A stretch of DNA of 64,000 nt from Candidatus Levybacteria bacterium RIFCSPHIGHO2_02_FULL_40_18 (GCA_001782235.1 MFOC01000007.1:156040-220039); one strand, 5' to 3'. Numbered from the stretch's first letter, positions 3,431 to 58,296 are shown. A program made the numbers and translations. Notes: generated by a model not told the origin, from the sequence alone.

Positions 3431-4575
3431 ATAATTTTTCAAATAAGAAGAAACTCTTTTTGGTCCTACTTGTTCTGTTTATTTTTTCTCTCGGAGTATT
3501 TATTTTATATAAATTCTATTTCAAGCCCGATATTCAACTTAAAACCGAGAAAAAAACAGGCAATATTAATGTTTTGCTTCTTGGCAAAGCGGGCGGTCAG
3601 CATGAAGGCCCGGATTTAACAGACACCATAATTTTAGCAACTATAAATCCTCAAAAAAACGTAGTTAATCTTATCTCAATCCCAAGAGATCTCTGGATAC
3701 CGGACCTTCAAGCGAAAATCAATACAGCATATGCATATGGGCAAGAGAAAGATCGCCAGGGAAAGCTTTTAGCAAAAACGGCCGTAAGTCAGGTTACGGA
3801 AAAACAAATAGACTATGTTTTAGTTGTTGATTTCCAGGCATTCGTAGATTTGATTGATCATATCGGAGGAATTGACGTAGGTGTTAAAACAATTCTTGAT
3901 GATTATAAATACCCAATTGAAGGCCGCGAGGATGATCCTTGTGATCATACGGATGAAGAGATTATAGACCTTTCAGCCCAGATCGCCACCGGGAGCGCCT
4001 TACCAGAAGATGTATTCCCATGTAGATATAAACACATACATTTTGATGCCGGATTAGTTCATATGGACGGAGAACGAGCCCTAGAGTTTGTCCGGTCGCG
4101 CCACGGCACGAATGGTCAAGGGTCGGATTTTGCAAGAAGCATGCGACAGCAAGATGTTATTAATGCGGTAAGGGATAAGACTTTATCTTTGGGAACACTC
4201 CTTAATCCCATTAAGGTTTTAGGTGCTTTCAATATCATTCAAAACAATATTGATACGAATGCAGAGATCCGTGAGTTAGATGATTTCATAAATTTGGCAA
4301 GAAAAATTCAGGGCGCAAAAATAATAAGTACCGTAATAGACATTGGATCCGGGGAAGGACAAAGGCCAGGATTACTTATACATCCTCCCGTGTCAGAAGC
4401 GCAAAAACTTCAGTGGGTATTAATACCAAGAGTAGGAGACGGAAATTTTTCAGAAATTCATGAGTTTATAAAATGCATCGAAGAAGGATTCGAATGTAAA
4501 ATTGAAGAAGACGGCATTAGTAAGAATACCACGAGTATCAAGAGTACCAAAAGTACCAGAAATATAAAAGACTAA
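3424..4575 (+). CDS. LytR-CpsA-Psr (LCP) family cell-envelope phosphotransferase
   Basis: N-terminal TM, then NVLLLGKAGGQHEGPDLTDTIILATINP...ISIPRDLWIP...INTAYAYG...VVDFQAFVDLIDHIGGIDV, which matches LCP domain hallmarks. The last 15 codons lie in a GTATCA-type repeat. Confidence 0.8.
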   Translation: MLNNFSNKKKLFLVLLVLFIFSLGVFILYKFYFKPDIQLKTEKKTGNINVLLLGKAGGQHEGPDLTDTIILATINPQKNVVNLISIPRDLWIPDLQAKINTAYAYGQEKDRQGKLLAKTAVSQVTEKQIDYVLVVDFQAFVDLIDHIGGIDVGVKTILDDYKYPIEGREDDPCDHTDEEIIDLSAQIATGSALPEDVFPCRYKHIHFDAGLVHMDGERALEFVRSRHGTNGQGSDFARSMRQQDVINAVRDKTLSLGTLLNPIKVLGAFNIIQNNIDTNAEIRELDDFINLARKIQGAKIISTVIDIGSGEGQRPGLLIHPPVSEAQKLQWVLIPRVGDGNFSEIHEFIKCIEEGFECKIEEDGISKNTTSIKSTKSTRNIKD

Positions 4576-4587
4576 AGAAAATGGTTG

Positions 4588-4703
4588 TTGGAAATTAGAA
4601 AATAGTAATGGAGATAGGAAAATAGAAAATAGTTTAAAAACCAATTTCTAACATCTAATTTCCATTACCAATTTCTATTTTCTAATAACTAATTTCTAAC
4701 TCC
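4588..4703. repeat. Palindromic GAAATTAG/GAAAATAG/TAATGGA element, copy 1 (family also at 5866..6025 and 63908..64000)
   Basis: Left arm ggaaattagaaaatagtaatggagataggaaaatagaaaatag; right arm is its approximate reverse complement ...ctaatttccattaccaatttctattttctaat. It fills the convergent gap between the LCP gene and the 4713..6980 gene. Confidence 0.75.
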
Positions 4704-4712
4704 TGATACCTT

Positions 4713-6980
4713 TTAGTTGAGTTTATATATCTTTGTCTGCCCGACTTCAAAAACTACATCTCCGAGCTTTTCAAACTTTGCCTCGTTGATATTATTGTAT
4801 TTTTCGCGTTCAAGATTCCCGAGATAAACATATTTGATATTATGTTTTTTTAGAATCTTTTTCGTTTCGTCTAGATCGTTTGATTCGTAAATTAGTCTCA
4901 CTTCCTCAATTCGAGGTGCCGGAATATCATACGTTCCGCGCCAGAGCCATTCGTGAACTGTCCAACCAAGGACCGTCGGGAGTCCTGTGTTTGCCGATAT
5001 TCGGGCGTAATCCGTATAGGAGTCTCCCTGTGCCTCAACAATAACCGGCCTTCCCTCTATATTTTGGTTTAACCACATGATGGCTTTATAATCATCCGGG
5101 AGTCTGTCTTTCATGTAAGCGATTCCGTCAAGTCCGATAAATTTTCTTAAGTCTCCATAATAAGATTTGATTGCAAAGTAAGGATAGACGAAGACCAATA
5201 TTAAAAATAAAATAGCAAGTAGCAAATATACGTAGTAAACCCCGTTAGACCAATACCGTCTAACGGGGTAAATATTAAAAACTTTAAAACCTTTCGGTTT
5301 GAAACTTACGGCCAATCTCACAATAATATAGCCTGATGAGATTGAAAGCATGATGAAGCTTTGATAGACAAGTTTAAACATAGTGTTCGCGCGATAGTGG
5401 GCAGGATAAATGTCTTTCAAATAGATAAGTTCCGGAGTTATAATTAGTATCGAAGAAAGAAGGATCAAAAGAAAGATAAAAACATCCGAAACTTCAACTT
5501 TGAATTTCTTTTTTTGCCTCCTGATAAAAATGATAAAAGATAAAACGAAAAAGTAAAAAAATCCATAGAGCGTTAATAGTTGCCACCAGGTGCTTCTTTG
5601 GCAGTGGTCTTTTTCAAAAAGAAGTGGTCCAATTTGCCCTATATTTTCTAAAAATTTTGGGGGGCAAACCATGCCGATTCCCTGAGCAAACGGCTTAAAA
5701 TTTAAACTAAAAGGGAGCGTGAATAATACAAATAAAAAGAAGAGCGGTATTATTAACTTTGGTTTGCGAATATAAACAAAGACAAAACCGGCAAGAGCCA
5801 TATAAATTAGTCCGTCCCACGCATTAGTCATATACATAATTGCTAGCAAGAGTGCTAGCAATAAAATTCGAAATTCGAAATTCGAAGTTCTATTAAAAAG
5901 AAATTGGTTTATAGAAATTAGAAAATGGTAATAGAAATTAGATATTAGAAATTGGTATTTTTTGCTATTTTCTATTTTCCAGCTTCCATTACTAATTTCA
6001 ATTTTCTTAGAACTATTTTCCCTTCGTGGGGTTCCATGCCTTTGTATTAATAAGGCATAGAGTAGGGCGATTGTTAAGAGTACGAAAGGAATGTCGATTA
6101 CATGGCCGTGTAAATCCGATACGACAAAAGAATAAATGGGGAATTCGTGGATTGTGAAAGGTATAAATCTTGTCGCATTTGGGTACCAGTAACTATTGGG
6201 AAAAGTAGAAAATAAAAATTGTAAATTCCAAAATGGAACCGGCGCGTCAGTATTATATGAGGCAAAAAACGCATATATTGTATGAAGATTTCCAGCTAAA
6301 GCCACAATAAGGCCTGTTAGAAGTCCTCCTATAAAAGCTTTTCTCAGAGATACGACTTTAGACAAGATATTCGTCCCCAAAGAAAATGATAAGGTCAATG
6401 TAAAAGAAAATAAGGTTGCGATCATTAAGTTATATGAAACAGAGGAAGGCACAAAAGAGATTTCTGTCATAACCGCGGTCACAAGGTGTCCAAAGTAATA
6501 ATAATTTATCGGTAACGGCGGGAACCACATATCAACCGCTGGTTGCCACGTTGTTCGAAGAATCGAGTTCACAAATCCAAAATCCATGAACTTCTCAAGA
6601 CCATTAATACTTGGTTCATGCGCACGAATATAGCTCCAGAAGACAATTCCGGCAAAGAAAAGAAATTCTTCGAATAGAAAAATTTTTGCGAAGGGCTTGA
6701 GTTTATCAATCCTATGCTTTTTAAGAATAAAAATATTTCCGATAAGACAAATCCATAAAATTATTGCAAGAGAGAAAACGCCAAAAGGCAAAAGATGTAG
6801 ACTGTTGACCACAAGAATTATGTAGGAAATAATTCCAATTCCAAGAACCTTTGAGAAAAGAAATCCTCGATCCCAAAAATTCTTGAATATTAAAAAAGTT
6901 AATGGCGCAAATACTATTCCCACCAAAAAGAATGAGCCCCACCACTCTAGAATCCAAACAACTTCTTGAAAGCTAAACAT
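4713..6980 (-). CDS. Polytopic membrane protein with Chlor_Arch_YYY / DUF2298-like region (putative GT-C-like glycosyltransferase)
   Basis: Many TM helices; PINYYYFGHL motif; conserved C-terminal soluble domain (GRPVIVEAQGDSYTDYARISANTGLPTVLGWTVHEW). Contains an in-frame repeat-element-derived segment (see 5866..6025). Confidence 0.5.
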   Translation of the reverse strand: MFSFQEVVWILEWWGSFFLVGIVFAPLTFLIFKNFWDRGFLFSKVLGIGIISYIILVVNSLHLLPFGVFSLAIILWICLIGNIFILKKHRIDKLKPFAKIFLFEEFLFFAGIVFWSYIRAHEPSINGLEKFMDFGFVNSILRTTWQPAVDMWFPPLPINYYYFGHLVTAVMTEISFVPSSVSYNLMIATLFSFTLTLSFSLGTNILSKVVSLRKAFIGGLLTGLIVALAGNLHTIYAFFASYNTDAPVPFWNLQFLFSTFPNSYWYPNATRFIPFTIHEFPIYSFVVSDLHGHVIDIPFVLLTIALLYALLIQRHGTPRRENSSKKIEISNGSWKIENSKKYQFLISNFYYHFLISINQFLFNRTSNFEFRILLLALLLAIMYMTNAWDGLIYMALAGFVFVYIRKPKLIIPLFFLFVLFTLPFSLNFKPFAQGIGMVCPPKFLENIGQIGPLLFEKDHCQRSTWWQLLTLYGFFYFFVLSFIIFIRRQKKKFKVEVSDVFIFLLILLSSILIITPELIYLKDIYPAHYRANTMFKLVYQSFIMLSISSGYIIVRLAVSFKPKGFKVFNIYPVRRYWSNGVYYVYLLLAILFLILVFVYPYFAIKSYYGDLRKFIGLDGIAYMKDRLPDDYKAIMWLNQNIEGRPVIVEAQGDSYTDYARISANTGLPTVLGWTVHEWLWRGTYDIPAPRIEEVRLIYESNDLDETKKILKKHNIKYVYLGNLEREKYNNINEAKFEKLGDVVFEVGQTKIYKLN
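5866..6025. repeat. Palindromic GAAATTAG/GAAAATAG element copy embedded in-frame inside CDS 4713..6980
   Basis: aaattcgaaattcgaaattcgaag...gaaattagaaaatggtaatagaaattag...tttttgctattttctattttccag...ccattactaatttc. It shares a 22-nt exact block (ctggaaaatagaaaatagcaaaaa, reverse complement) with the 63908 copy. It is translated as ENSSKKIEISNGSWKIENSKKYQFLISNFYYHFLISINQFLFNRTSNFEFRI. Confidence 0.7.
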
Positions 6981-7566
6981 ATTTTGTAAAGAACTCGGCT
7001 AAATCCTTTATTTGCTTTATATTATTAGGTAAATTTCTTGTCCACCGCTGTCTCGTTCCACTCGCAGCCGGTTTCCCTCGCACTTCGCCGGAGCCGGTGC
7101 TCGGTCCAACCCAGTAAAATTCAATATTCGGATTTTCCTTTGAGAGAAAGAGGAGAAGATCTAAATCGTCATCTATATATTTTTTAATCTTTTCTTTTTT
7201 GATGATGCTATCCTTAAATTTATGAGGCTGTTCGTCCTTCTCATTAAAATAGCATTTTTTAAAATATCCAAAAAGATTATTCTTTTTATCCCAATCGGCT
7301 GTTCGTTGTTTTAAAAATGAAAATCTACTCGAGATTAGATACATATTAGAGAGGCGAGTCTTTTTAAAAAATAGCAGATTGTTTTTTATTGCCGGACGAA
7401 AAATAGGAATATGGGACAAAACTCTTATTTTCTGCTCTAATTTACCGGGGAATCTGTACAAAAGGCTGTTTCTTCTTTGTTTATAGAGCCACTCAATTAA
7501 AAATTTTGGTATGAAAGGAGGACCACTAATAAAGACGCCATCAAGATCAAAGCCTATTTTTGTCAT
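6973..7566 (-). CDS. Hypothetical protein, possibly HAD-superfamily-like (FDLDGV motif)
   Basis: The N-terminal IGFDLDGVF resembles HAD motif I; the rest is unassigned. Contains a GC-rich patch at 7040-7110 encoding WVGPSTGSGEVRGKPAASGTRQRW. Confidence 0.3.
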   Translation of the reverse strand: MTKIGFDLDGVFISGPPFIPKFLIEWLYKQRRNSLLYRFPGKLEQKIRVLSHIPIFRPAIKNNLLFFKKTRLSNMYLISSRFSFLKQRTADWDKKNNLFGYFKKCYFNEKDEQPHKFKDSIIKKEKIKKYIDDDLDLLLFLSKENPNIEFYWVGPSTGSGEVRGKPAASGTRQRWTRNLPNNIKQIKDLAEFFTKYV

Positions 7567-8723
7567 TTTTTCATTCTACCTATTTTCGTATAATACATCA
7601 AATGAGACAAAAAAGATTATTAATTTTTACGGATTTTTTTACTCCTCATTGGACAGGAGTGTCAAAATCTATTGACTATTTAACCAAAGGAATAGGTAAT
7701 CATTACAAAATTACTGTCCTGACAGTAAGATTTGATAAGTCTTTAAAAAAGAAAGAGAATCTTGGGAGAGTCCGAGTGTTGAGAGAGGATTTTGCCTTTG
7801 CACTAAGCAGAAGCAAATATTCTGTTAGGATCATATTTAGGTTTCTTGGGATTGTAAAAAATTTTGATGTCGTTGTTATCAATTCTCCTTCATCCAATAT
7901 ACTCCCAATAGCAATAATAACTAAGATTTTTGGCAAGAAATTAATTATTTTTCATCAAGGGGACTTGATATTGCCGAAAGGATTTATAAATAGAATAATA
8001 GAGAAGATTTTTGACATATCTTGCTATTTTTCTTTTTTAATCTCTGACAAAGTTTCAACATATACCGCAGACTACGGGAAGAACTCAAGGGTTATTAGGA
8101 ATTTTTTATCAAAATTTGAACCGATGCTTGTACCGATTTATTTAACTAAAACAACAGATAAAATCAGATTAATTCAGGATCTTAAAAAAGAAAAGTTATA
8201 TATATTTGGGTTTGCCGGAAGATTTGTTGAAGAGAAAGGGTTTGATATCTTACTTGATGCAATTCCGGCCGTTATAAAAGAAAGAAAAGATGTTAAATTT
8301 GTATTTGCTGGGGAGGCTAATATAACCTATGAAAATTTTTACCAAAAAAATCAAGATAAACTTTCAAGGATCAACGAGCACGTGATAATTTTGGGACTTT
8401 TAGGCGAATACGATATTGTGAAATTTTATAATTCGCTAGATTTTCTTATTGTGCCTTCTCGCTCGGATTGTTTTAATTTAGTTCAAGCAGAGGCAATGGT
8501 AAGAGGCATTCCATCAATAGTTTCTAATATACCCGGAGCGAGATTTTTAGTTGATGAAACTTCCTTTGGATTAAAATTTAAGCTAGAAGACTCAAGCGAT
8601 CTTGGGAAAGCGATATTAAGTGCGATAAAAAATAAAGATATGTTTAAAAAGAAGTGGATTAAAGTTAAGGAGATATTAAATAATAATCAAAATGTTAAAA
8701 AAATTGAAGATATTATTGGATAA
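7560..8723 (+). CDS. Glycosyltransferase family 4 (GT-B, Glycos_transf_1)
   Basis: FGFAGRFVEEKGFDILLDA...FVFAGE...LIVPSRSDCFNLVQAEAMVRGIPSIVSNIPG, i.e. the GT4 E-x7-E region. Confidence 0.8.
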   Translation: MSFFHSTYFRIIHQMRQKRLLIFTDFFTPHWTGVSKSIDYLTKGIGNHYKITVLTVRFDKSLKKKENLGRVRVLREDFAFALSRSKYSVRIIFRFLGIVKNFDVVVINSPSSNILPIAIITKIFGKKLIIFHQGDLILPKGFINRIIEKIFDISCYFSFLISDKVSTYTADYGKNSRVIRNFLSKFEPMLVPIYLTKTTDKIRLIQDLKKEKLYIFGFAGRFVEEKGFDILLDAIPAVIKERKDVKFVFAGEANITYENFYQKNQDKLSRINEHVIILGLLGEYDIVKFYNSLDFLIVPSRSDCFNLVQAEAMVRGIPSIVSNIPGARFLVDETSFGLKFKLEDSSDLGKAILSAIKNKDMFKKKWIKVKEILNNNQNVKKIEDIIG

Positions 8724-9492
8724 CGAGATAGATCCGGCATACGCAAAAAGAGCAGAGTTTATTTTTCAAACCGTCGAGCGCGAAAAACCAAAAAGGATTC
8801 TTGATGTTGGATGCGGAAGAGGATTTTACGTAAACGCACTATCGCTTTACGATTTTCCCAAAGAAATCATAGGACTAGATATAAATAAAGAGTACCTTGA
8901 GGAAGCAAGAAGATATGCGAGTGATATGCGAGCAAAATTTATTAGGAAATCTGTTTATTCCATTAATTACACCAATAACTATTTTGATTTAGTGATTTGC
9001 TCAGAGCTTCTTGAACATCTCTCGTATGATAAGAAAGCCCTATCAGAGATTTTTCGGGTTTTAAAAAAAGGAGGAACACTTATTGTAACGGTGCCAAGCG
9101 AGGACTTTCCACTGTTTTGGGATCCGGTGAACTGGGTTTTGATGCGTTTTTTTAACACCCATATAAACAAAGATGTATGGTTTTTGGCAGGAATATGGGC
9201 AGGACATGAAAGGCTTTATAACATGAAGAATCTTTCAAGAATTATTGAAGAAGCAGGATTTTCAATTCTTGAGATGAGCGGGGTAATTTCTTTCTCTTGG
9301 CCTTTCTCCCATTTTCTTTTATACGGTTTAGGTAAAAATATTGTAGAGAGATTAAATGTGAAAAGCCTAAACAGGTTTGAACTTAAAAAAAATAATATTA
9401 AGATTTTTTTGGCAAAATTATTTTCTTATCCAACCAAACTTAGCATAGGCGATTCTTCTGTGGACATTATTGTTCTTGCAAAAAAGAATTAA
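8692..9492 (+). CDS. Class I SAM-dependent methyltransferase
   Basis: ILDVGCGRGFY (motif I), LVICSELLEHL, VLKKGGTLIVTVP. Overlaps the GT4 gene by 32 nt. Confidence 0.8.
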   Translation: MLKKLKILLDNEIDPAYAKRAEFIFQTVEREKPKRILDVGCGRGFYVNALSLYDFPKEIIGLDINKEYLEEARRYASDMRAKFIRKSVYSINYTNNYFDLVICSELLEHLSYDKKALSEIFRVLKKGGTLIVTVPSEDFPLFWDPVNWVLMRFFNTHINKDVWFLAGIWAGHERLYNMKNLSRIIEEAGFSILEMSGVISFSWPFSHFLLYGLGKNIVERLNVKSLNRFELKKNNIKIFLAKLFSYPTKLSIGDSSVDIIVLAKKN

Positions 9493-14059: not shown

Positions 14060-14128
14060 ATAAAGGTATTTTAGATGTTCTCTAGAGGACAAACAAGCCC
14101 TTCGGCTGTGCTCAAGGTTATAGTCCTT

Positions 14129-23951: not shown

Positions 23952-23953
23952 AC

Positions 23954-24106
23954 GCTCGTGTACATTTTTCTCAGACCCGCTCGGTAAGTTATTAGTTTAT
24001 TAATGTTATCCTCCCTTCGCTAAATGAAAATCGCATATTCACTTTAGTCTATATGTAATATTTTTCTTGAGCGATTTTCAGTTGTCTTCGAAAAATGTAC
24101 ACTTTG
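23954..24106 (+). repeat. ~155-bp MITE-like / structured element, copy 2
   Basis: Terminal inverted repeats cgtgtacatttttc / gaaaaatgtacac (13 bp perfect), with inner stem gaaaatcgc / gcgattttc. Exactly fills the convergent gap between the lepA stop (23951) and the stop of gene 24110..25309. Confidence 0.8.
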
Positions 24107-35327: not shown

Positions 35328-36749
35328 TTATTGGAGGCGGGGGAAGAGAGGGGGGGCGGACTTAATTTTTCCCGAGAATTGCGGAAGAATCTTTTCGGCG
35401 GTTTCGGGAAGAAACGGCCTAAGGTTGTATCCAATCTCTTGGACTCTTTTGACTAGATCTTTTAATACCTTCGAAAGTTCTTCGCCCGCCAGCTTCCAAG
35501 GTTCGCGAGCGTTTATTAATTGATCTGCCTCAGCAATTAATTGCCAAATTCCCCGTAAACCTTCATTGAATTTGAATTCTTCAAAAGATTTATCGACATC
35601 CGCGCACCAAACTTTATAAGTATCAGGCGCTTCAAAATTTTCCTTCTCGCAAAGCTTTGCAACTCTTGCCACCAAATTCCCTAACCCATTGGCAAGATCT
35701 GCGTTATAAACTTCGCGGAATTTATCTTCCGAAAAATCACCATCTTGGAAAGGCGAAAATTTGGCAAGAAAATAGTAGCGAAGCGGATCAGCCCCATATT
35801 TCTCAACAAGCGGCGTTGGATCAATAATATTCCCGAGCGTTTTTGACATCTTTTGTCCGTTGACAGTAAAGTACTCATGAACAAAAAGAGTTTTAGGCAA
35901 AGGGAGCCCAGCGGAAAGTAAGATTGCCGGCCAGTAAATAGCGTGAAATCGGATAATGCCCTTACCGATTACGTGAACATCCGCCGGCCACCACTTTTTG
36001 TATTTTTCATCGTCCCGGCCGAATCCTATACCGCTTTGATAAATGTTTAAAGCATCAAACCAAACATATATACGCTGTGAATCATCGCCCGGAACGGGTA
36101 CTCCCCAATTTTTGGCCCTCTCATTTGTTCGAGAAATGCTAAAGTCCGAAAGACCGGATTTTATTAAAGAGAGCATTTCGTTCTTTCTAAATTCAGGAAT
36201 TATTTTATATTCGTCCGACTCGATTAGTTTTAATAACTTATCCTGATAGGAAGAGAGTTTAAAAAAATAATTCTCCTCAGAAACCTCCTCAAGCTTTTTG
36301 CCAGGATGCTCGTAGCATTCGCCTTTTTTGTTTAATTCGTCTTTTGTATAAAATACCTCACATCCTACACAATAGAGACCTTTATATGGTTTTTTATAGA
36401 TATCGCCGGCCTTATCGCACAATTCCCAGAGTTTTTGGCTTGAGGGGTAGTGGGTTTTCTTATCACTTCCCTTTTGCCAGACATCAAATTGAACATTTAG
36501 CTTCTTTGAGAGATCATAAAAGGCTTGAGTATTACGATCGACAAATTCCTGAATAGGGACTCCGGCTTCCTCTGCGGCTTGTACATTTTTTAAGGCATTC
36601 TCGTCCCCGCCGCACAAAAGTAAAACATCCTCACCTTTTAATCTATGGTAGCGCGCGATAGCATCAGATTGGACAAATTCCAAAGCATGGCCCACGTGAG
36701 CGGCAGCATTCACGTAAGGGATCGCATTTGTGATATAGAACTTGTTCAT
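35328..36749 (-). CDS. metG: Methionyl-tRNA synthetase (short form lacking C-terminal tRNA-binding extension)
   Basis: AIPYVNAAAHVGHALEF (HIGH-type), Zn knuckle CVGCEVFY, KMSKTLGNIIDP (KMSKS). The last 10 codons are GC-rich. Confidence 0.9.
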   Translation of the reverse strand: MNKFYITNAIPYVNAAAHVGHALEFVQSDAIARYHRLKGEDVLLLCGGDENALKNVQAAEEAGVPIQEFVDRNTQAFYDLSKKLNVQFDVWQKGSDKKTHYPSSQKLWELCDKAGDIYKKPYKGLYCVGCEVFYTKDELNKKGECYEHPGKKLEEVSEENYFFKLSSYQDKLLKLIESDEYKIIPEFRKNEMLSLIKSGLSDFSISRTNERAKNWGVPVPGDDSQRIYVWFDALNIYQSGIGFGRDDEKYKKWWPADVHVIGKGIIRFHAIYWPAILLSAGLPLPKTLFVHEYFTVNGQKMSKTLGNIIDPTPLVEKYGADPLRYYFLAKFSPFQDGDFSEDKFREVYNADLANGLGNLVARVAKLCEKENFEAPDTYKVWCADVDKSFEEFKFNEGLRGIWQLIAEADQLINAREPWKLAGEELSKVLKDLVKRVQEIGYNLRPFLPETAEKILPQFSGKIKSAPPLFPRLQ

Positions 36750-36799
36750 ATATGAATTATACCCGAGCCTATGAGGCTAAACAAGCCTCATGGGAAGAG

Positions 36800-36880
36800 T
36801 ACCACGGGTATCAAGAGTACCAAAAGTATCAAGGGCTCTTACTTTTCGAATGTAGTCTAATGATCTAGATAATTAGATTA
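36800..36880. repeat. GTATCA-heptamer + TAGTCTAAT-palindrome intergenic element (family also at 4525..4570 and 58232..58296)
   Basis: agagtaccacgggtatcaagagtaccaaaagtatcaag ... gtagtctaatgatctagataattagattagaca. It is near-identical to accacgagtatcaagagtaccaaaagtacc at 4531-4562 and is related to gggtatcacgagtatcacgg...tagtctaataattcagatcattagact at 58232-58296. Confidence 0.6.
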
Positions 36881-36894
36881 GACATAATTCGTTT

Positions 36895-37230
36895 TTATTT
36901 GCGTTTGGAGTAGAGGAATTCTATTAGTAAAATTATGGTGAGAAGAACAAGCATGTGGAAGGCGCCTCGAATTTCAAAAAACCTCAAGATCAAAAGCCCT
37001 ATTATAAATATTGAGGCAAGAATTCCACGCCTTGTGTTTACAAACAGAAATGAAAAGAGAAAAAAAGAAGAGATAAATACTAAAGCCAATAAAAATATTA
37101 CTGGGTGAATGACAGAATTGAAAACTTCGAATTCTTGTTTGGGAGATACTAAAAGGATAAAGAAGCCAAGCGGCAAAAGCGACACTAAAAAAAGATACAA
37201 AAACGGCAAAAACTTCCTTTGCGACCGCAT
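36895..37230 (-). CDS. Small membrane protein (3 TMs), hypothetical
   Basis: Hydrophobic 111-aa ORF. Confidence 0.3.
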   Translation of the reverse strand: MRSQRKFLPFLYLFLVSLLPLGFFILLVSPKQEFEVFNSVIHPVIFLLALVFISSFFLFSFLFVNTRRGILASIFIIGLLILRFFEIRGAFHMLVLLTIILLIEFLYSKRK

Positions 37231-37386
37231 ACATTAAGAGTATCAGATTAAAAGGGTATGGTTAAAGGGTTAAGTTTGTGCTGCCAGTATGGTAATAGGG
37301 TGTGGTTTTTAGTAAATTTAAGCCTAAGACCCAAACCATAACCATACGAGCTGCCCCAACCCCAACGAAACCCTAAGCCCCATCTC

Positions 37387-37422
37387 TTGACATCCGTTAG
37401 CACTCGTGGTATCATCTTGCTA
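37387..37422 (+). promoter_or_regulatory. hrcA promoter (TTGACA-17-TATCAT) overlapping a CIRCE-like operator (TTAGCACTC-N9-TCTTGCTAA)
   Basis: ttgaca at 37387-37392 and tatcat at 37410-37415. The CIRCE left half ttagcactc is perfect; the right half matches 6 of 9 positions. Lies upstream of hrcA-grpE-dnaK. Confidence 0.5.
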
Positions 37423-37466
37423 ATTGCGAATCCTACGAATAATTGTTTGCATAATATTAGCATAAT

Positions 37467-38189
37467 ATGTACGATTTGACGCCAAGACAAATAGACATTC
37501 TTAAGAATATAATTCGAGAATATATTGATTCTGCAGAACCTGTGGGTTCTGAGACCCTTGAGAAAAAATATGATCTTGGGGTATCTCCTGCCACAATCCG
37601 TAATGAAATGGCCGAGATGACAAAAATTGGCTATCTTTCAAAACCGCATTCTTCTGCGGGCCGAATCCCCACAAGCAAGGCAATTAAATTCTACATCAAT
37701 GAATTAATGAAAGAAAAGGAGATGTCTGTGGCTGAAGAGGTCGAAGCAAAGGAAAAGATTTGGGACCTGCGGGAAGGAAGAGAAAGATTTTTGCGCGAGG
37801 CTACACATGAGCTTGCTCAAAAGACCCATTCCTTAGCAGTTGCAGCAACTGATGAGGGAGATATTTATTATTCCGGCTATTCGAATATTTTAGAAATGCC
37901 TGAATTTTATGACATTGATATAACTAAAAATCTCTTAAGTATTCTTGATAATGCCTCATACTTTGAAAGAATTCTTCAAAGACTAGAAGATGAATGTTCA
38001 GTTTTTCTTGAGGATGATTTTGAAGAGGCTCTTCTTAAGCCCTATGGTTTTGTTTTTACAAGATTTGAAACAAAAGGACATCACATAGGAACGATAGGCG
38101 TAGTTGGTCCTACAAGAATGCAATATGAATTGGTAATTCCGGTTGTCAGATATTTTGGTAATTTGGTCCGCGAAGTTGCCACATGGTAA
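37467..38189 (+). CDS. hrcA: Heat-inducible transcription repressor HrcA (short form)
   Basis: LTPRQIDILKNIIREYIDSAEPVGSETLEKKYDLGVSPATIRNEMAEMTKIGYLSKPHSSAGRIPT. Confidence 0.8.
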   Translation: MYDLTPRQIDILKNIIREYIDSAEPVGSETLEKKYDLGVSPATIRNEMAEMTKIGYLSKPHSSAGRIPTSKAIKFYINELMKEKEMSVAEEVEAKEKIWDLREGRERFLREATHELAQKTHSLAVAATDEGDIYYSGYSNILEMPEFYDIDITKNLLSILDNASYFERILQRLEDECSVFLEDDFEEALLKPYGFVFTRFETKGHHIGTIGVVGPTRMQYELVIPVVRYFGNLVREVATW

Positions 38190-48257: not shown

Positions 48258-48258
48258 T

Positions 48259-48275
48259 CCGCCAGTGGCGGATTA
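48259..48275 (+). terminator. GC hairpin (ccgcc-agt-ggcgg) 2 nt after the S8 peptidase stop
   Basis: 5-bp GC stem followed by attat; opens a 120-nt GC-rich intergenic block at 48258-48380. Confidence 0.3.
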
Positions 48276-48383
48276 TCCCGAGTCTCGGTCTAAGAGGCGA
48301 GGGATCTCTGAACCCGCGTGTTGCGACCGAAGGATCCATTGCGTTCCACTAGCAAACGGCCTCAACTTTTGCTAAAATACCCT

Positions 48384-49274: not shown

Positions 49275-49277
49275 AGT

Positions 49278-49793: not shown

Positions 49794-49841
49794 TACATAC
49801 TAATCATAAGCATATTCCCAAGTACTTGTCAAGAGCCTATA

Positions 49842-50516: not shown

Positions 50517-50529
50517 GTTGTTTTACTCG

Positions 50530-50907: not shown

Positions 50908-51440
50908 CTTAATCCTGAAGTTGTTTGAACTGTTCTTGTTTCAGGCCCCGCTTCTCTTTGGGTAACGCTTGTTAGCGTTAAAGAGATAGTTACAGTATTT
51001 TTCCCGCCGACATTCCCAAGTTTCTTAAAGGAAAGGTTTGAGATCCTTGTCCCGAAACTGTTTAAGTTATCGGACCCTTGGCTATTCGTGATTAAAAGAT
51101 TTCCGGCAGAAAGAGAGTATATGTTTGATGTTCCATCAATGATGAGCTCAAGGGAATCGGTAACAGCCGAGGGAGTTGCGGGCACTGCGATATTTTCCGC
51201 ACGATTTATATCATAGATAAGCCGGGCCATAATAAATCGGGAATCTTGCGAAACTTGAGAGTTTGCTTCCGATTCAAGCCGTACCCCGAGAACTGATGTA
51301 AAAATTTGAGTTTGGACCAGGAGAAAAAGCGAGAGAATACCCATATATAGGAGGAGTTCGACAAGTGTAAATCCAGCACCATTTTTTGGTTTTGGAGAAC
51401 ATAGTTCAAGCTTAGATAAAAATGGTGCTGGATAAATCAT
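50904..51440 (-). CDS. Prepilin-type N-terminal domain protein (minor pilin / pseudopilin)
   Basis: KNGAG|FTLVELLLYMGILSLFLLV. 23-aa leader; a perfect 16-bp inverted repeat lies in codons 3-24. Confidence 0.7.
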   Translation of the reverse strand: MIYPAPFLSKLELCSPKPKNGAGFTLVELLLYMGILSLFLLVQTQIFTSVLGVRLESEANSQVSQDSRFIMARLIYDINRAENIAVPATPSAVTDSLELIIDGTSNIYSLSAGNLLITNSQGSDNLNSFGTRISNLSFKKLGNVGGKNTVTISLTLTSVTQREAGPETRTVQTTSGLR

Positions 51441-53452: not shown

Positions 53453-53470
53453 TATGAATTTTTAATTTAA
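53370..53470. repeat. Two adjacent 7-nt-periodic tandem repeat arrays (AAAGTTA/AAAGTTT and TTTTGAC/TTTTGAA) between pilin genes
   Basis: ttaaagttaaaagtttaaagttaaaagttttt ... aattttgacttttgaattgtaattttgaattttgcattatgaatttttaattt. Confidence 0.75.
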
Positions 53471-53935
53471 AGAGGTGACTACGCCATATCTATTTATATT
53501 TATGGTTTTTGAGTCCTGAGCAACAGTATCTTCTAAAGTTATAGAATTTTGTGTTTCCGAAAATGAGGTTACTTCCCCACTTTTAATTAAAAAAATAATC
53601 TGAGAGGACGGAAAAGTCGATTGGATTTGTAAATCCTCGTTCAAGTTTATAGTAAAGTTTGAAGGATCGTTTGGATCAAAATTGTCACCATGGAAGAGAG
53701 TGTAAGAATTAGTTCCAAAATAGATTCCATAATTATCGTTTGTAGAACGTCCTTCCGTGTCGCCTGCCATAACTTTAATCTGTTGAGAGGAGAGGTCTGA
53801 AATAAGGGTTGTTATAGCTGTACCTAAAATGGACCCACTTCTAAAAGGCACGAAGCTGATGCTTGCCATGCCAGCAAGCGTCATGAGTATTCCGATAACT
53901 ATGATTACTTCAATAAGAGTGATTCCGCGCTTCAT
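53462..53935 (-). CDS. Type IV pilin (MKRG|ITLIEVIIVIGIL)
   Basis: Canonical short leader and prepilin methylation domain; 157 aa. Confidence 0.7.
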   Translation of the reverse strand: MKRGITLIEVIIVIGILMTLAGMASISFVPFRSGSILGTAITTLISDLSSQQIKVMAGDTEGRSTNDNYGIYFGTNSYTLFHGDNFDPNDPSNFTINLNEDLQIQSTFPSSQIIFLIKSGEVTSFSETQNSITLEDTVAQDSKTININRYGVVTSLN

Positions 53936-54984
53936 CGTGGTCCAACCTGACCAATCAGGCCATAAATTGGCGAAATAATTGCCAACATCATTCCTCCTAC
54001 AATTATGCCCACAACAATCAGCATAATTGGTTCAAGAAGAGAGATTAGAGTCCTAAGAGTTGTTGACACCTGATAATCAAGATATTCCGATACATCCTGC
54101 ATGGATTTGTCTAAGGAACCGCTTTTTTCTCCCGCCTCGGTAATTTTTATCATTATACTCGGGAAAATATTTTTTGCTGCCTTAAGTCCTTCAGATAATT
54201 TATTACCTGATAGAACCATATCGCGAGACCTTATAATTGCCTGTGCTACTTCTTTCTTTAAAACAATCTCCTGTGTTAATTCTAGCGCCGTGGTAATAGG
54301 TATCCCGGCATTAAGAAGAATATAAAGATTTCGTGAAAAACGTGTAAGATCTATCTGCCTCGCAAGACTTCCTACAAGTGGAAAGGAAAAAAGAATGTTT
54401 AGGAACACATGTTTTTGATTTATATACATAAAAATAAATACTATAAGTAAAATTATTCCTCCCAAGACAAGAAAAATGGTTTGTTTAAGAATTAGATCGG
54501 ACAATAAAATCAAGATTTGAGTAGGCAAGGGGAGAGGAACGTTTAGACGCAAAAAAACTGTCGAAATTTTAGGGATAACCACGGTTAGGATCATGAGCAA
54601 AACGCCAATAAATACAAGAAGAATAAAGGCAGGGTAAGTTAATGCAGCCCTTATTTTATCCCTAAATTCTGTTTCCATTCTAATATTTTCTTTTAGATCC
54701 AAAAGAGTTACATCCAGAGTTCCTCCCTCCTCGGCCGCTTTTATAAGATTTACAGTGACTTTGTCAAAAATTTTAGGGAATTTTTCAAAAGAGGCCGAAA
54801 TATGGACGCCTTGCATGAGATCTTCCCGCAATACCTCAAGTAGTTTCTTTTGATTTCCTTTTGAGTCCTCAAGAAGGGAGTCTACGATCTCAAGGATTGA
54901 TAGACCTGCCTCAAGCATTGTTGCGAAGTTGCTAATCAAGCCTAATTTTTCAGAATTGGATATTGAAATAGATTTTATGTTCAT
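53932..54984 (-). CDS. pilC: Type IV pilus assembly platform protein PilC (GspF family)
   Basis: Two T2SSF repeats (…LIKAAEEGGTLD…, …ITEAGEKSGSLD…); three TMs per repeat. Confidence 0.85.
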   Translation of the reverse strand: MNIKSISISNSEKLGLISNFATMLEAGLSILEIVDSLLEDSKGNQKKLLEVLREDLMQGVHISASFEKFPKIFDKVTVNLIKAAEEGGTLDVTLLDLKENIRMETEFRDKIRAALTYPAFILLVFIGVLLMILTVVIPKISTVFLRLNVPLPLPTQILILLSDLILKQTIFLVLGGIILLIVFIFMYINQKHVFLNILFSFPLVGSLARQIDLTRFSRNLYILLNAGIPITTALELTQEIVLKKEVAQAIIRSRDMVLSGNKLSEGLKAAKNIFPSIMIKITEAGEKSGSLDKSMQDVSEYLDYQVSTTLRTLISLLEPIMLIVVGIIVGGMMLAIISPIYGLIGQVGPR

Positions 54985-55015
54985 TTTTTCACCCCGCCAC
55001 GGCGGGGAGAGCCCC

Positions 55016-56713
55016 TCATACTAATTCTACTTTGGTAACTCTTAGGACCTCTTCTATAGTTGTAACGCCTCGTGTTGTCTTGTCTAAGCCATCTTCAAGC
55101 ATTGTAACCATCCCCTCGCTGATTGCTTTTTGCTCAATTACATCAGAGTCGCTTTTCTCGGTAATTAATTTCCTTATGTCTTTTGTAACCTCTAATACTT
55201 CAAATATTCCAATTCTTCCGGAATAACCTGTTGAATGACAAATTTTACAGCCTTGTCCCTTAAAAAATTCAACCTCGATTTTTTCTCCAAAATGTTTAGT
55301 TACCATTTCTTTTGGAAGATTCTTGATTAATTCTGAAGTGGAAATTTTATATGGCGCTTTACACATTTCACAAATTTTTCGAACCAACCTTTGGGCAATA
55401 ATTACATTAACAGTTGATGCGACCAGGAACGGTTCAACGCCCATATCAATTAAGCGGGGAAGGGAAGTGGCCGCATCATTTGTGTGTAATGTAGACAAAA
55501 CTAAATGACCGGTTAGAGCAGCATTTACAGCAATTCCTGCAGTTTCATTGTCGCGAATTTCCCCAACAAAAACAACATTTGGGTCTTGTCTTAAAATAGA
55601 GCGCAGACCATTGGCAAAAGTTAGATTGGTTTTAGGGTTTGCCTGTATTTGATTTACTCCCATGATTCTATATTCAATAGGGTCTTCTATAGTGGTGATG
55701 TTTTTTTCCCTAGTATTTAAGATCTTTAAGATAGCGTAAATAGTGGTAGTTTTTCCCGATCCGGTAGGACCGGTTGATAGGACCATTCCGTATGATTTAT
55801 TGTATGCGGATGTTACTTTCTTGAGTTCCTCCTCATTCATTCCTAGATCAATAAGAGAAAATTGTCTGTATCTTGCGGCAAGAAGTCTTAACACAGCCTT
55901 CTCCCCATCCGTAATTGGCAAAATTGATACTCTAATATCTAGATCCTCCTCTTCAAGCTTAACTCTCATTTTTCCATCCTGCGCACTTAAATGCTCATCG
56001 GTTCGTAGCCTTGAAAGAATTTTTATTCTTGAGATTATTCTGTCATGAAAATTTTTTGGCAAGAGAAGCACGTCATGGAGTATTCCGTCAATTCTGAACC
56101 TGATTAAAGATTCTTTTTCCTGCGGCTCTATATGAATATCTGACGCTTTATCCTGATAGGCAAATTCTATAAGAAGCGTTACGATTTTCTCAATTGGGGC
56201 TTCATCTGATAATTTTGAGGGATCTGTCTCTCCCAGTTCTTTGTGCAATAGCTCTTCAAAGGTAACCTGAAGGGCTTTTTTATAAATTTTTAGAACGCTT
56301 TCGATATCTCTTTCCGTAGCAAGATATGGTATAACCCTAAAACCGGCTTTCTTGCCGATTACATTTTGTAACTCAACATTTGTTGGATCAACCATGGCAA
56401 GTCTTAATCCATCTTGGTCCAATGCAAACGGAATGACTTTATTTCTCCTCGCAGTTTTTTCAGGGATTATATGAAAGATGTTCTCAGGGATTGATAATTT
56501 TGATAAGACTATGAAAGGGATATGGAGAAAATTGGCAATAAGAATTCCTAAATTTTCATCAGAAATTATGTCCTTTTCAATTAAAGCATCATTAAGAGTT
56601 ACTTTAGAATTCTTAGCGAATTCATTAAGTTCCTCAAGCTTTTCTTGCGTAATAACTCCTGTTTTTAAAACTAATGCTTTTAACTCTTCCTCAGAAATCA
56701 GCATGGGCAGCAA
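55016..56713 (-). CDS. pilB: Type IV pilus assembly ATPase PilB (GspE family)
   Basis: Walker A LSTGPTGSGKTTT, Asp box, Walker B, His box, and a tetracysteine motif CEMCKAP...CKICHSTGYSGRIGIFE. Confidence 0.9.
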   Translation of the reverse strand: MLPMLISEEELKALVLKTGVITQEKLEELNEFAKNSKVTLNDALIEKDIISDENLGILIANFLHIPFIVLSKLSIPENIFHIIPEKTARRNKVIPFALDQDGLRLAMVDPTNVELQNVIGKKAGFRVIPYLATERDIESVLKIYKKALQVTFEELLHKELGETDPSKLSDEAPIEKIVTLLIEFAYQDKASDIHIEPQEKESLIRFRIDGILHDVLLLPKNFHDRIISRIKILSRLRTDEHLSAQDGKMRVKLEEEDLDIRVSILPITDGEKAVLRLLAARYRQFSLIDLGMNEEELKKVTSAYNKSYGMVLSTGPTGSGKTTTIYAILKILNTREKNITTIEDPIEYRIMGVNQIQANPKTNLTFANGLRSILRQDPNVVFVGEIRDNETAGIAVNAALTGHLVLSTLHTNDAATSLPRLIDMGVEPFLVASTVNVIIAQRLVRKICEMCKAPYKISTSELIKNLPKEMVTKHFGEKIEVEFFKGQGCKICHSTGYSGRIGIFEVLEVTKDIRKLITEKSDSDVIEQKAISEGMVTMLEDGLDKTTRGVTTIEEVLRVTKVELV

Positions 56714-56808
56714 AAGACAGACGCCTAATTAAACGCCTACATTTATCATACAATAGGTCGAATTTAGATGCTAGATCTTGGATGATAGATATTAGATAAT
56801 AATTAAAA

Positions 56809-57207
56809 GTGAAAAGGTTAATAAATAGTTTCGATAAGTTAAAAGCGTGGCAAGAGGCTCATAAATTAGTAGTTATGATCTATAAGGTAACAACTAGTTT
56901 TCCGAAACATGAAATGTATAGATTAACAGATCAGCTATGTCGATCAGCAAGTTCGATCGCGGCAATTTTGGTTGAGGGTAATTCGCGAGGTTCAAGAAAA
57001 GAGTATATTCATTTCGTTTTCCAAGCAAGAGCATCCTTAGAAGAACTTAAGTATCACCTTCTACTGGCAAAAGACCTAGGTTATTTAGATGAAAGCTTAT
57101 ATAATAAGTTAATGGCACAGGTAGATTTGGTTGGGAAACTAATTAATGGCCTACTTCGATACTTAAAATCTAGTAGAAATGTCCAATATCCAAAATCTAA
57201 TATCTAA
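56809..57207 (+). CDS. Four-helix-bundle protein (TIGR02436; 23S rRNA intervening-sequence protein / DGR Avd-like family), standalone
   Basis: FDKLKAWQEAHKLVVMIYKVTTSFPKHEMYRLTDQLCRSASSIAAILVEGNSRGSRKEYIHFVFQARASLEELKYHLLLAKDLGYL matches the family consensus. Confidence 0.8.
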   Translation: MKRLINSFDKLKAWQEAHKLVVMIYKVTTSFPKHEMYRLTDQLCRSASSIAAILVEGNSRGSRKEYIHFVFQARASLEELKYHLLLAKDLGYLDESLYNKLMAQVDLVGKLINGLLRYLKSSRNVQYPKSNI

Positions 57208-57224
57208 TATCTAATATCAAAATT
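57186..57224. repeat. CTAATAT heptanucleotide tandem repeat between the four-helix-bundle gene and the dehydrogenase gene
   Basis: atatccaaaat ctaatat ctaatat ctaatat caaaatt. Confidence 0.7.
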
Positions 57225-58226
57225 ATGAAGTTTGCGTGTTTTGAACTACAAGACTGGGAAGAGGATTATCTTAAAGAAAAATTCGGAAACACCGTTGACA
57301 TCTCGTTCCATTCGGAGGAATTAAATATTGAGAATGTTCCGGCCGTAAAAGATGCGGATGGAATTGTGGTGTTCATCTATTCGACTATCGATAAACAAGT
57401 TCTTGACCTGATGCCTAATCTGAAATTTATCGCAACTATGTCAACGGGATTTGACCATATTGATATTGAGGAGTGTAAAAGACGAAACATTATCGTATCA
57501 ACTGTTCCGACATACGGAGAGAATACCGTCGCAGAACACGCTTTTGCTCTAATTTTTGCCATATCACGAAGATTGATTGAGTCCCATAATAGAGTTTCCG
57601 AAGGAAATTTCTCACCAACAGGGCTTACGGGGTTCGATCTTTTTGGAAAAACTTTAGGGGTGATTGGGGTTGGAAATATTGGCTCGCATGTTATCCGAAT
57701 CGCCAAAGGGATTGGCATGGATGTTTTAGCTTATAAACGAACGCCGGATCCAAAACTTGCAGCTGATCTTGGGTTCCGTTTTGTATCTATGGACGAGTTG
57801 CTTTCTCAATCAGATATAATTTCAGTTCATGTTCCATACAATAAAGAAACACATCACATGCTAAATAGCGATGCATTTTCTAAAATGAAGGATGGCGTTG
57901 TGATTATAAACACTGCACGAGGGGCAATTATTGATACAACGGCATTAGTTTCAGCGCTTCAAAGCGGAAAAGTTGCGGCCGCAGGACTCGATGTTCTTGA
58001 AGAAGAATCAATTATTCGCGAGGAACATGAGCTTTTGCACAAAGAGTTTCCGATTGAAGATTTAAAAACAGTTCTTGAAAACCACATGCTCTTAAATAAT
58101 CCAAAAGTTGTGATTACTCCCCATAATGCCTTCAACAGCCGTGAGGCCCTGATGCGAATATTGCGGATCACCGAGGAGAACATCAACGGCTTCCTCGCGG
58201 GCCAACCTAAGAATTTGGCCTTCTAA
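57225..58226 (+). CDS. D-isomer-specific 2-hydroxyacid dehydrogenase (D-lactate dehydrogenase-like)
   Basis: NAD-binding GVIGVGNIGSHV; catalytic region VHVPYNKETHHML...INTARGAIIDTTALVSAL...GLDVLEEE. Confidence 0.85.
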   Translation: MKFACFELQDWEEDYLKEKFGNTVDISFHSEELNIENVPAVKDADGIVVFIYSTIDKQVLDLMPNLKFIATMSTGFDHIDIEECKRRNIIVSTVPTYGENTVAEHAFALIFAISRRLIESHNRVSEGNFSPTGLTGFDLFGKTLGVIGVGNIGSHVIRIAKGIGMDVLAYKRTPDPKLAADLGFRFVSMDELLSQSDIISVHVPYNKETHHMLNSDAFSKMKDGVVIINTARGAIIDTTALVSALQSGKVAAAGLDVLEEESIIREEHELLHKEFPIEDLKTVLENHMLLNNPKVVITPHNAFNSREALMRILRITEENINGFLAGQPKNLAF

Positions 58227-58231
58227 CAGAA

Positions 58232-58296
58232 GGGTATCACGAGTATCACGGGGAAGTTTTTGTGCCTAGTCTAATAATTCAGATCATTAGACTTGA
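58232..58296. repeat. GTATCA-heptamer + TAGTCTAAT-palindrome element at the left edge of the GC-rich island
   Basis: gggtatcacgagtatcacgg ... tagtctaataattcagatcattagact. Same family as 36800..36880. Confidence 0.55.

Follow-up and report, generated by a model that had tools for sequence, protein, structure and literature searches.

Rickettsia palindromic elements (RPEs) are repeats, akin to miniature inverted-repeat transposable elements, that are inserted in-frame in protein-coding genes of Rickettsia (PMC10969869). The small regulators HisR (YerC) and TrpR bind 20-bp palindromes; the motifs vary from one lineage to another, and autoregulation is found for roughly half of hisR genes (PMC9413887). 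Here we analyse a 64,000-nt stretch of DNA, the window, from Candidatus Levybacteria bacterium RIFCSPHIGHO2_02_FULL_40_18 (GCA_001782235.1, MFOC01000007.1:156040-220039), in which arrays of a GTAYCA-type unit and a palindrome had been taken, in a reading of the sequence alone, for one dispersed repeat family at gene 3' ends. We propose, at a probability of about two in three, that the supposed family is two independent elements placed side by side: a nonamer array belonging to a selfish element, and a 28-bp palindrome that would be the operator of a TrpR-family regulator.

The likeness of the nonamer element to RPEs is one of behaviour, and none of sequence is expected. Both are short, palindromic and dispersed, lie between genes as well as in-frame in unrelated housekeeping genes of a reduced genome, and add a short hydrophilic peptide while the host open reading frame (ORF) is kept. 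However, RPEs are ~150 bp long as compared with ~60-110 nt here, and their host is Rickettsia rather than a Microgenomates-type bacterium of the Candidate Phyla Radiation (CPR). The arms of the nonamer element consist of four tandem 9-nt units with a degenerate MRR triplet, an internal periodicity that to our knowledge is absent from RPEs, and the window itself has solo arms only. Cyanobacterial short tandemly repeated repetitive (STRR) heptamers and small dispersed repeats form short-period intergenic arrays, with several unit families per genome and often as inverted pairs; the nonamer element departs from these in its period (9, not 7), in an arm fixed at four units, in its frequent occupation of coding regions and in phylum. 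With the REP/BIME, Correia, ERIC and BOX/RUP families it shares small size, abundance, hairpin formation and the lack of coding capacity for mobility. Those families are essentially extragenic, and several are terminators or mRNA stabilisers, whereas the nonamer element is as often intragenic; its copies in the window cannot form hairpins, and no RAYT or other transposase partner turned up, no search having been aimed at one.

The palindrome, for its part, resembles HisR and TrpR operators in being a palindromic duplex site, here predicted from sequence, for a small helix-turn-helix (HTH) dimer of Pfam family PF01371, in lying in the regulator's own promoter, and in being lineage-specific and co-varying with the protein. 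It is 28 bp long and matches neither cacTTTAnnnnnnTAAAgtg nor TGTAcTnGTnnACnAgTACA, the HisR/TrpR consensus sequences of PMC9413887, and the CPR regulator has ~146 aa with a C-terminal extension, as compared with under 100 aa in HisR and TrpR. Also different are the constant second site directly past the regulator's stop codon, the many extra sites at gene 3' ends, and the neighbours in the window, which are metG, a small membrane protein and a 2-hydroxyacid dehydrogenase, with no his or trp genes. The mismatch to the consensus sequences, the longer protein and the non-his/trp neighbours suggest a separate Trp_repressor subfamily and regulon.

Arrays and palindromes in the window and elsewhere

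The pattern GTAYCA-N3-GTAYCA has seven overlapping matches in the window as compared with 0.31 expected, all on the + strand and only at 4526-4558, 36799-36831 and 58234-58248. The pattern TAGTCTAAT-N10-ATTAGA has two, at 36853 and 58267, as compared with 0.01 expected. The features of these three loci, referred to as copies 1 to 3, are as follows.

3424-4575, + strand: gene of the LytR_cpsA_psr (LCP) family, PF03816, whose 3' end holds array copy 1
4523-4561, + strand: array copy 1, AGA-ATACCA CGA-GTATCA AGA-GTACCA AAA-GTACCA GAA, with three perfect cores and one degenerate
35328-36749, - strand: metG, flanking copy 2
36796-36834, + strand: array copy 2, four units AGA-GTACCA CGG-GTATCA AGA-GTACCA AAA-GTATCA AGG, intergenic
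36835-36852, + strand: GCTCTTACTTTTCGAATG, putative loop-start region of copy 2, which with the preceding AGG gives AGGGCT, a typical hairpin loop start
36853-36880, no strand assigned: palindrome of copy 2, TAGTCTAATGATCTAGATAATTAGATTA, reverse complement TAATCTAATTATCTAGATCATTAGACTA, 37.4 bits
36895-37230, - strand: ORF111, flanking copy 2
58231-58253, + strand: array copy 3, two units AGG-GTATCA CGA-GTATCA CGGGG, an incomplete arm
58254-58266, + strand: AAGTTTTTGTGCC, conserved left flank of the palindrome, for which relatives have AAGTCTTTGTGCC/G
58267-58294, no strand assigned: palindrome of copy 3, TAGTCTAATAATTCAGATCATTAGACTT, 40.4 bits

The bit values are scores on a position weight matrix (PWM), for which the best of 20 shuffles reached 7.6 bits; PWM and half-site scans of the window gave no further weak palindromes besides those of copies 2 and 3. 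The sequence-only reading had placed repeat copies at all three loci, and GTAYCA-type units are indeed present at each, with the palindrome at two and copy 1 lacking it. The GATC noted within the palindrome is present in both. The units had been called heptamers, which the data do not bear out: Tandem Repeats Finder reports periods of 9 and 18, the spacing from core to core is exactly 9, and the unit is GTAYCA plus a degenerate MRR triplet, 9 nt in all. The near-identity claimed for copies 1 and 2 (family D3) is real, with 92% identity over 37 nt (4522-4558 versus 36795-36831); every difference is a transition at a degenerate R/Y position, and the order of the variable triplets is common to the two.

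Both components are repeated and dispersed, as had been said, in that array and palindrome each recur elsewhere. They do not recur together. A scan for nonamer arrays in one genome per species, requiring three consecutive units, gave at least 120 loci, and a scan of metagenome contigs for the palindrome gave 56 stretches with 35 distinct CPR-type palindromes. None of the listed array loci contains a palindrome, and none of the 35 palindromes has two or more nonamer units within 150 nt, so a composite module that had spread is not what we find. The palindrome is flanked asymmetrically, GTGCC standing at one end and GATTCGAA at the opposite end. When it is oriented by these flanks, opposite ends of the palindrome face the array in copies 2 and 3, and there is thus no fixed composite architecture. 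The absence of shared copies elsewhere, together with the opposite orientations, argues that array and palindrome are separate elements; that two repeats are neighbours in a window is not enough to make a single element of them. The literature searched held no description of the palindrome, of GTAYCA nonamer elements or of CPR palindromic insertions, which is weak evidence of novelty.

The palindrome and the Trp_repressor-family gene

The motif has the layout TAGTCTAATGAT-TYAG-ATCATTAGACTA, a near-perfect palindrome of 28 bp, and its consensus over 38 distinct matches, TAGTCTAATGATTYAGATYATTAGACTA, is strongly conserved at the positions that the search pattern left free. In 13 lineages a TAGTCTAATGATYTAGATCATTAGACTA palindrome brackets a gene for a ~146-aa protein of the Pfam family Trp_repressor (PF01371, E = 2.3e-13), with one copy past a TTGACA-N17-TAnnnT promoter but ahead of the ATG and another shortly behind the stop. 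The position between promoter and ATG was first seen in five contexts, L132, L140, L150, L175 and L180. Beyond these, seven homologues (42-72% identity) are bracketed without exception (7/7), and the bracketing copies stand 1-14 nt ahead of the start codon and 2-5 nt past the stop. The palindrome is on both sides of the gene in L185, L186, L188 and L190, and in the three most divergent lineages both sides carry a lineage-specific variant, namely GCTACCATGATTCGAATCATGGTAGC in L192, a CTATGAT...ATTAGAG form in L205 and ACTCTAAT-N10-ATTAGAGT in L206. The site thus co-varies with the protein.

The palindrome is never found inside an ORF (0/45 sites), and 17 of 45 sites lie no more than 12 nt from a stop codon. 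The bias towards gene 3' ends that had been claimed for the whole family is borne out in part for the palindrome; it does not hold for the arrays, 55 of 96 of which, among those listed, are within ORFs. That sites right after stops and right before starts are common would also suit a structural nucleic-acid element, REP-like or an mRNA-punctuation or stabilising hairpin, which might mark a processing site, hold up exonucleases or end transcription with the help of a factor. Such an element would fit the predicted fold of a 12-bp stem with a 4-nt loop (-13.1 kcal/mol, z -5.5; only 2-3 of the pairs are G-C), the copies at both ends of the TrpR-family gene, and the central loop that is flipped between relatives while the flanks are not. 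The pairing within the stem speaks against it. Non-Watson-Crick pairs are frequent and uncompensated, occurring in 23 of 46 sites at positions 10/19 (12 A-C versus 2 A-T pairs) and in 15 of 46 at positions 3/26 (9 G-T and 4 A-C pairs), and this asymmetry points to independently degenerate half-sites on duplex DNA rather than to a selected hairpin. Moreover, the bracketing of the regulator gene persists as the sequence shifts with the protein lineage, which is unexpected for general punctuation, and 720-kb contigs hold one exact match only. We regard a structural role as unlikely. A rho-independent terminator, which calls for a G+C-rich stem-loop with a U/T tract right behind it, is not supported for either part: consensus scans of 36000-38000 and 57500-59500 gave no terminator-like site at either palindrome, the palindrome is AT-rich with no consistent T-run, and the arrays are unfolded.

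Taken together, the absence from ORFs, the lack of compensatory pairing and the co-variation with the protein make an operator of the TrpR-family regulator the most likely identity of the palindrome. It would be the duplex binding site of a dimeric ~146-aa regulator of the Trp_repressor family (YerC/YecD-like), and protein binding at the palindrome is what the half-site pattern suggests. Two sites around the regulator gene would imply autoregulation, possibly with looping, and the regulator would have extra sites in short intergenic regions, of which those of copies 2 and 3 would be two, kept by selection in related genomes.

Neither of these two is at a classical operator position. For copy 2, the palindrome's right end is separated by 14 nt from the stop codon of ORF111, and its left end stands 103 nt ahead of the start of metG. 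That of copy 3 lies between convergent genes, the dehydrogenase gene on the + strand and a G+C-richer segment with two minus-strand ORFs. A role as roadblock, insulator or looping partner is possible for both, and the insulator that had been suggested for the repeat could survive in this form, as a property of a protein-bound palindrome. The copy 2 palindrome is similar to the putative operator that precedes the TrpR-family gene of L190, and the GTGCC flank recurs in L132, L147, L154, L178 and L190. L190 and L191, which come from the same aquifer datasets, have a GGCAC-type flank and a copy 2-like operator in common with the window, and are candidate relatives only.

In the CPR, genomes are tiny, and very few regulators or mobile elements have been characterised. 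A YerC-like operator, if that is what the palindrome is, would open to direct test a regulon and a binding motif of one of the few transcription factors of these bacteria, and the architecture, with two sites around the regulator's own gene, would be unusual.

A look-alike palindrome, TAGTCTAATAATGTAGATTATTAGAGCA, was seen in gut metagenomes (L129, L139, L149, L169) and viral contigs (L332, L342), just past TTGACA-N17-TATAAT, with divergent XRE-type HTH genes on its two sides. Its appearance is that of a phage operator of the cI/cro type, and a relation to the CPR motif is improbable.

The nonamer element within and between genes

The figures given here for array classes and for placement in ORFs rest on the matches listed in the genome scan. 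Homogeneous arrays (n = 48) come from miscellaneous taxa, and none of them has an inverted partner (0/48). Heterogeneous arrays (n = 96) come mainly from metagenome-assembled genomes (MAGs) labelled Levy-, Curtiss-, Gottesman-, Davies-, Blackburn- or Woesebacteria or Patescibacteria; some MAGs with hairpin elements are labelled "uncultured Gammaproteobacteria", Lysobacterales or similar, labels that are unverified. The heterogeneous arrays have four units in 54 cases, three in 40 and five in 2, and their triplets are mostly AAA, AGA, CGG, CGA, AAG and AGG. In 34 of the 96 an inverted array follows 8-53 nt downstream. The full element can thus be written (MRR-GTAYCA)x4, loop, (TGRTAC-YYK)x4, with a length of ~60-110 nt and a loop that often begins CGAGCT or AGGGCT, and 20 full hairpins fold at -23 to -46 kcal/mol. 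Among the matches listed, DASZRG01 has at least 10 loci, and JACPAR01 and MFBU01 at least 6 each.

On a crude ORF map, the 55 arrays within ORFs lie in frames of at least 90 codons. Whole hairpins are found in-frame in Rho, RecG, a histidine kinase, CarB, TopA, FolC, GuaA, transketolase, RluD and DinB. The RecG insertion is at the same position in two genomes, and in JACPAR01 the element is present in Rho, the histidine kinase, CarB and TopA of one genome. When TopA is compared with the topoisomerase I structure PDB 6ozw, the element supplies 28 residues in place of 7, with conserved blocks aligned on both sides, and the Pfam domains HATPase_c, GATase, PseudoU_synth_2 and IMS run across inserts. 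The period is a multiple of three, four of the six reading frames have no stop codon, and the encoded peptides are hydrophilic (S/T/G/K/R/D) and of low complexity, reading KGTTSTTG... or RVSQVSRVP... from one arm and ...RDTRDTLDTRGT from the other. These properties would explain why in-frame copies are tolerated inside essential genes.

The arrays of the window are not themselves hairpins. They fold at -2.1 kcal/mol (z -0.8), no inverted partner was found in the window for any of the three, and the hairpin-capable inverted arms of the 20 full elements in other genomes are absent from all three. They may be solo or decayed halves of full elements. At copy 2, comparison with full elements whose loops begin agggct or cgagct (e.g. 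L128, L123) suggests that GCTCTTACTTTTCGAATG is a loop start. Within it, TACTTTTCG, with which CAAAAGTA pairs weakly in a local fold, could be the remnant of one inverted unit, the remaining right arm being gone. Copy 3 starts 4 nt past the stop of the 2-hydroxyacid dehydrogenase gene (57225-58226) and consists of two units and a loop-like CGGGG, followed by AAGTTTTTGTGCC. Copy 1, as the sequence-only reading had it, forms the last ~15 codons of the LCP ORF at 3424-4575, where it is translated in-frame as ...NTTSIKSTKSTR... in the tail of the protein. LCP homologues (n = 16) can be aligned as far as ...CKIEExGIxK, and beyond this point they diverge in length and sequence. P0103, an LCP homologue of another lineage (L203), has a four-unit array at the position of copy 1, and P0104 from its closest listed relative, L204, has exactly 27 nt fewer there and keeps one unit-like remnant, GGGATCAAG.

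That difference of exactly three units is compatible with unit gain and loss, and the remnant in L204 could be taken for a seed. The arrays might then not be selfish but local, microsatellite-like expansions, or else functional arrays of protein-binding sites selected in place, and the strict periodicity and conserved 6-mer core would agree with this. On the other hand, the units are heterogeneous inside an array, arm length stops at four units instead of following a slippage-type distribution, the arms form inverted pairs, one element is present in many unrelated genes of a single genome (JACPAR01), and copies 1 and 2 share the order of their variable triplets. We consider an origin or function in situ improbable, slightly more so than a structural role for the palindrome. 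Slippage of the microsatellite or STRR type does not fit, given the period of 9 and not 7, the heterogeneous units, the four-unit arm maximum and the absence of copy-number variation in nine assemblies at copy 3 and one at copy 2.

The nonamer element is thus best described, from the distribution of its copies, as a putative RPE-like, coding-tolerant hairpin element of Microgenomates-type CPR bacteria. It would be selfish, propagated by a copy-and-spread process or by gene conversion, and without a dedicated cellular function. The window arrays would be decayed halves, one fused to the LCP 3' end and one at the junction of a lost two-gene cassette. If the hairpins are selfish, the "selfish DNA in coding genes" known from Rickettsia would have arisen a second time, independently, in another reduced-genome lineage. 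They would then inflate and interrupt conserved domains, could mislead gene calling, alignment and the extraction of phylogenetic markers in CPR MAGs, and may seed deletions.

Two further ideas were dropped. In viral contigs, the array pattern matched nothing but long coding tandem repeats of an ordinary kind (VPE-type, with as many as 10 units) that have no real inverted partners, which indicates that the features of the CPR arrays are not artefacts of the pattern. As the viral-contig scans gave only these and unrelated AT-rich palindromes, carriage by phages was rejected. Solo arrays are not generally next to hairpins either, since the 100 nt upstream and downstream of 59 solo arrays fold like random segments (p = 0.48, 0.75).

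Other repeats share the habit of lying in genes. At 5863-5979, in the ORF at 4713-6980 (- strand), a heptamer-array hairpin is in-frame in a DUF2298 membrane-protein gene and is read as ...IEISNGSWKIENSKKYQFLISNFYYHFLISINQFLFNRTSNFEFRI...; it is the same phenomenon of in-frame insertion with another unit. Gene calling in assembly L004 splits the DUF2298 gene into ORFs of 374 and 372 aa. FolC (L116), transketolase (L083) and RluD (L039) have extra low-complexity inserts of other repeat types, e.g. VRKVREVREVSKVPKV and SVLGSQLSDKQSL...KTDNRKQKTDNR, which suggests that the genes of these genomes have been entered by several array-hairpin families. A hairpin with G+C ends, ACCCCGTTAGA(N9-11)TCTAACGGGGT, has two copies in the window (D17; 5239-5276 and 62100-62137), the first of them inside the DUF2298 ORF, and related ACCCCG...CGGGGT hairpins are directly beside the 28-bp palindrome in L147 and L148. 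Just after copy 1, between the convergent LCP and DUF2298 genes, an inverted repeat at 4576-4697 has 60-nt arms of heptamer arrays (GAAAATA and AATTTCT types) and folds at -43.5 kcal/mol (z -8.3). It belongs to a repeat family different from both nonamers and palindrome, presumably the one that the sequence-only reading had counted as first, and akin heptamer arrays stand at 5899-5955 and 63911-63967 (D4). In the Patescibacteria MAG DASZRG01, a conserved ~120-nt sequence (CGAGCTAATYTCAATCGTTTARCG...) follows four-unit arrays (L013, 5886-6030; L023, minus strand from ~1194), so that the array there appears to head a different, longer repeated element.

Syntenic relatives, indels and the remaining alternatives

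Synteny with the window is seen in two relatives, referred to as A (L141/L146/L147/L159) and B (L148). Dehydrogenase amino acid identity is 84% between the window and B, and 69% both between the window and A and between A and B, which makes A the outgroup. The palindrome of copy 2 is at the orthologous position in L147/L159, and that of copy 3 is downstream of the dehydrogenase region in L141/L146 and L148; both sites are conserved in spite of differences in the intergenic DNA around them. In A and B, a ~650-nt cassette of two genes, which has a promoter of its own, separates the stop of the dehydrogenase gene from the palindrome (L141, L148). The cassettes are homologous and one of the genes encodes an HTH protein. 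As the cassette is present both in the outgroup and in B, parsimony suggests that it was lost in the window lineage, with the array of copy 3 at the junction. At the copy 2 locus, the stretch from the palindrome to metG contains a 200-codon gene in A and, in its place, the array in the window, a change that may have gone in either direction. On the far side of the copy 3 palindrome, at ~58300-59340, the window has ~1 kb at a G+C content of ~0.49 as compared with ~0.38 elsewhere, with two minus-strand ORFs for small membrane proteins (58391-58915 and 58976-59335). In B the distance from the palindrome to the proline-rich gene is just ~90 nt, and the ~1-kb segment was therefore either inserted in the window lineage or deleted in B.

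The link of arrays and palindromes to indel junctions is suggestive, and to that extent the earlier idea of a role in recombination or insertion has something in its favour: the array of copy 3 is at the site of the two-gene cassette, and the G+C-richer segment lies beyond the palindrome. The sequence families with their contexts, the in-frame insertions, the co-variation of site and regulator gene and the conservation at orthologous positions are direct observations; protein binding, the mobility of the arrays and the direction of the indels other than that at copy 3 are what we infer from them.

Several observations weigh against a selfish array beside a TrpR-family operator. Both palindromes of the window have an array within 35 nt, for which the chance is ~0.002 (a post hoc estimate, with three arrays placed at random in 4.6 kb of intergenic DNA), and full independence leaves this adjacency unexplained. 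The cut-off arms and the absent genes would be consistent with deletions that stopped at the palindrome after removing adjacent genes and a portion of a hairpin element. All three arrays are solo arms, so that their descent from full hairpins is something we infer. The array flanks, on inspection, showed only MRR/YYK periodicity and no evident target-site duplication, and no transposase or other mobility signature turned up for the arrays, although no search was aimed at a partner gene. As to the palindrome, tblastn of the TrpR-family protein against the window gave no hit. Many sites, that of copy 3 among them, are between convergent genes or 1-12 nt past stops, where no promoter is expected, and a simple repressor-operator role does not account for these. 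The palindrome can fold as a hairpin (-13.1 kcal/mol), and its 4-nt centre is inverted between A and B while the orientation of the flanks is kept, which suggests occasional hairpin extrusion. Finally, assemblies of the window population are 100% identical (9 covering the copy 3 region, 1 covering the copy 2 region); over the two regions compared, no polymorphism is therefore visible from which rates could be derived.

The gene content that varies on the two sides of the palindrome could instead be explained if the palindrome were a site of site-specific recombination or integration, such as dif, attC or the core of a tyrosine-recombinase site. Its layout, 11+6+11 = 28 bp with an asymmetric centre, resembles such sites, and GTCTAAT...ATTAGAC is one mismatch per arm from RYYYAAC...GTTRRRY, which we take to be the R''/R' cores of attC. 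A toxin-antitoxin-like cassette lies on one side in the relatives and the G+C-richer two-gene segment on the other in the window, and the 200-aa gene beside copy 2 is in the relative only. At 28 bp, however, the palindrome is far below attC length; the cassette of the relatives has its own promoter; the orientation of the centre with respect to the flanks is not conserved, against what a directional crossover site would need; and no recombinase was linked to the palindrome, no search having been aimed at recombinases. In compact genomes, indels are expected beside any intergenic landmark, and the association with the TrpR-family gene is left unexplained. A recombination site is thus very improbable, and the operator is better supported. 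Least probable of all is a composite module of tandem units and palindrome that would have reached gene 3' ends, act there as rho-independent terminator or as insulator, and mark sites of recombination or insertion: the palindrome does follow two of the three arrays by 20-35 nt (with the low chance estimate given above), copies 1 and 3 are downstream of + strand genes, stop codons often adjoin palindromes and indels relative to the relatives adjoin both, but 35 palindromes and at least 120 array loci gave no other composite, copy 1 has no palindrome, copies 2 and 3 differ in relative orientation, no terminator-like site is predicted at either palindrome, the arrays are unstructured and elsewhere mostly within ORFs, and solo arrays are not generally beside hairpins.

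The reading as two elements, a selfish array and an operator, can be extended to a fuller account, which we offer tentatively and would rather doubt than accept as a whole. It would comprise a so far undescribed coding-tolerant hairpin class specific to Microgenomates-type CPR bacteria, with four 9-nt units per arm and copies inside essential genes (rho, topA, recG, carB, guaA); a palindrome that marks the regulon of an uncharacterised CPR Trp-repressor-family protein, with two operators around its own gene and further sites at gene 3' ends, perhaps as a roadblock insulator; and indels focused at the protein-bound palindromes, to which the clustering of truncated arrays there would be due.

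The window as a whole has a G+C content of ~38% and is rich in short-period tandem arrays, chiefly heptamers. Its LCP, dehydrogenase and ORF111 proteins are found at 100% identity on contigs of GCA_001782635.1 and GCA_001782345.1 and on JGI/ENA contigs, and the nearest named homologues of the LCP protein are from Candidatus Levybacteria. The source is a clonal population of a Microgenomates-type CPR bacterium from aquifer metagenomes, probably one of the Levybacteria. Scans of the whole window with Rfam (gathering thresholds) and for tRNAs gave no matches. An intergenic segment of ~150 nt is present in two copies that are 90-98% identical (2520-2680 and 23953-24105), one of them upstream of tpiA; an Rfam scan of 2450-2760 gave no match even at E <= 1, and the segment could be a repeated promoter or leader, or a small RNA of a new type. 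Between metG and the array of copy 2, at 36750-36794, a hairpin with an 11-bp stem, CCTATGAGGCT-AAACA-AGCCTCATGGG, extends into the -35 region of what may be the metG promoter, TTGTTT-17-TATAAT on the minus strand. From the -10 box of this promoter to the ATG there are only ~7 nt, which suggests that the metG mRNA is leaderless or nearly so.

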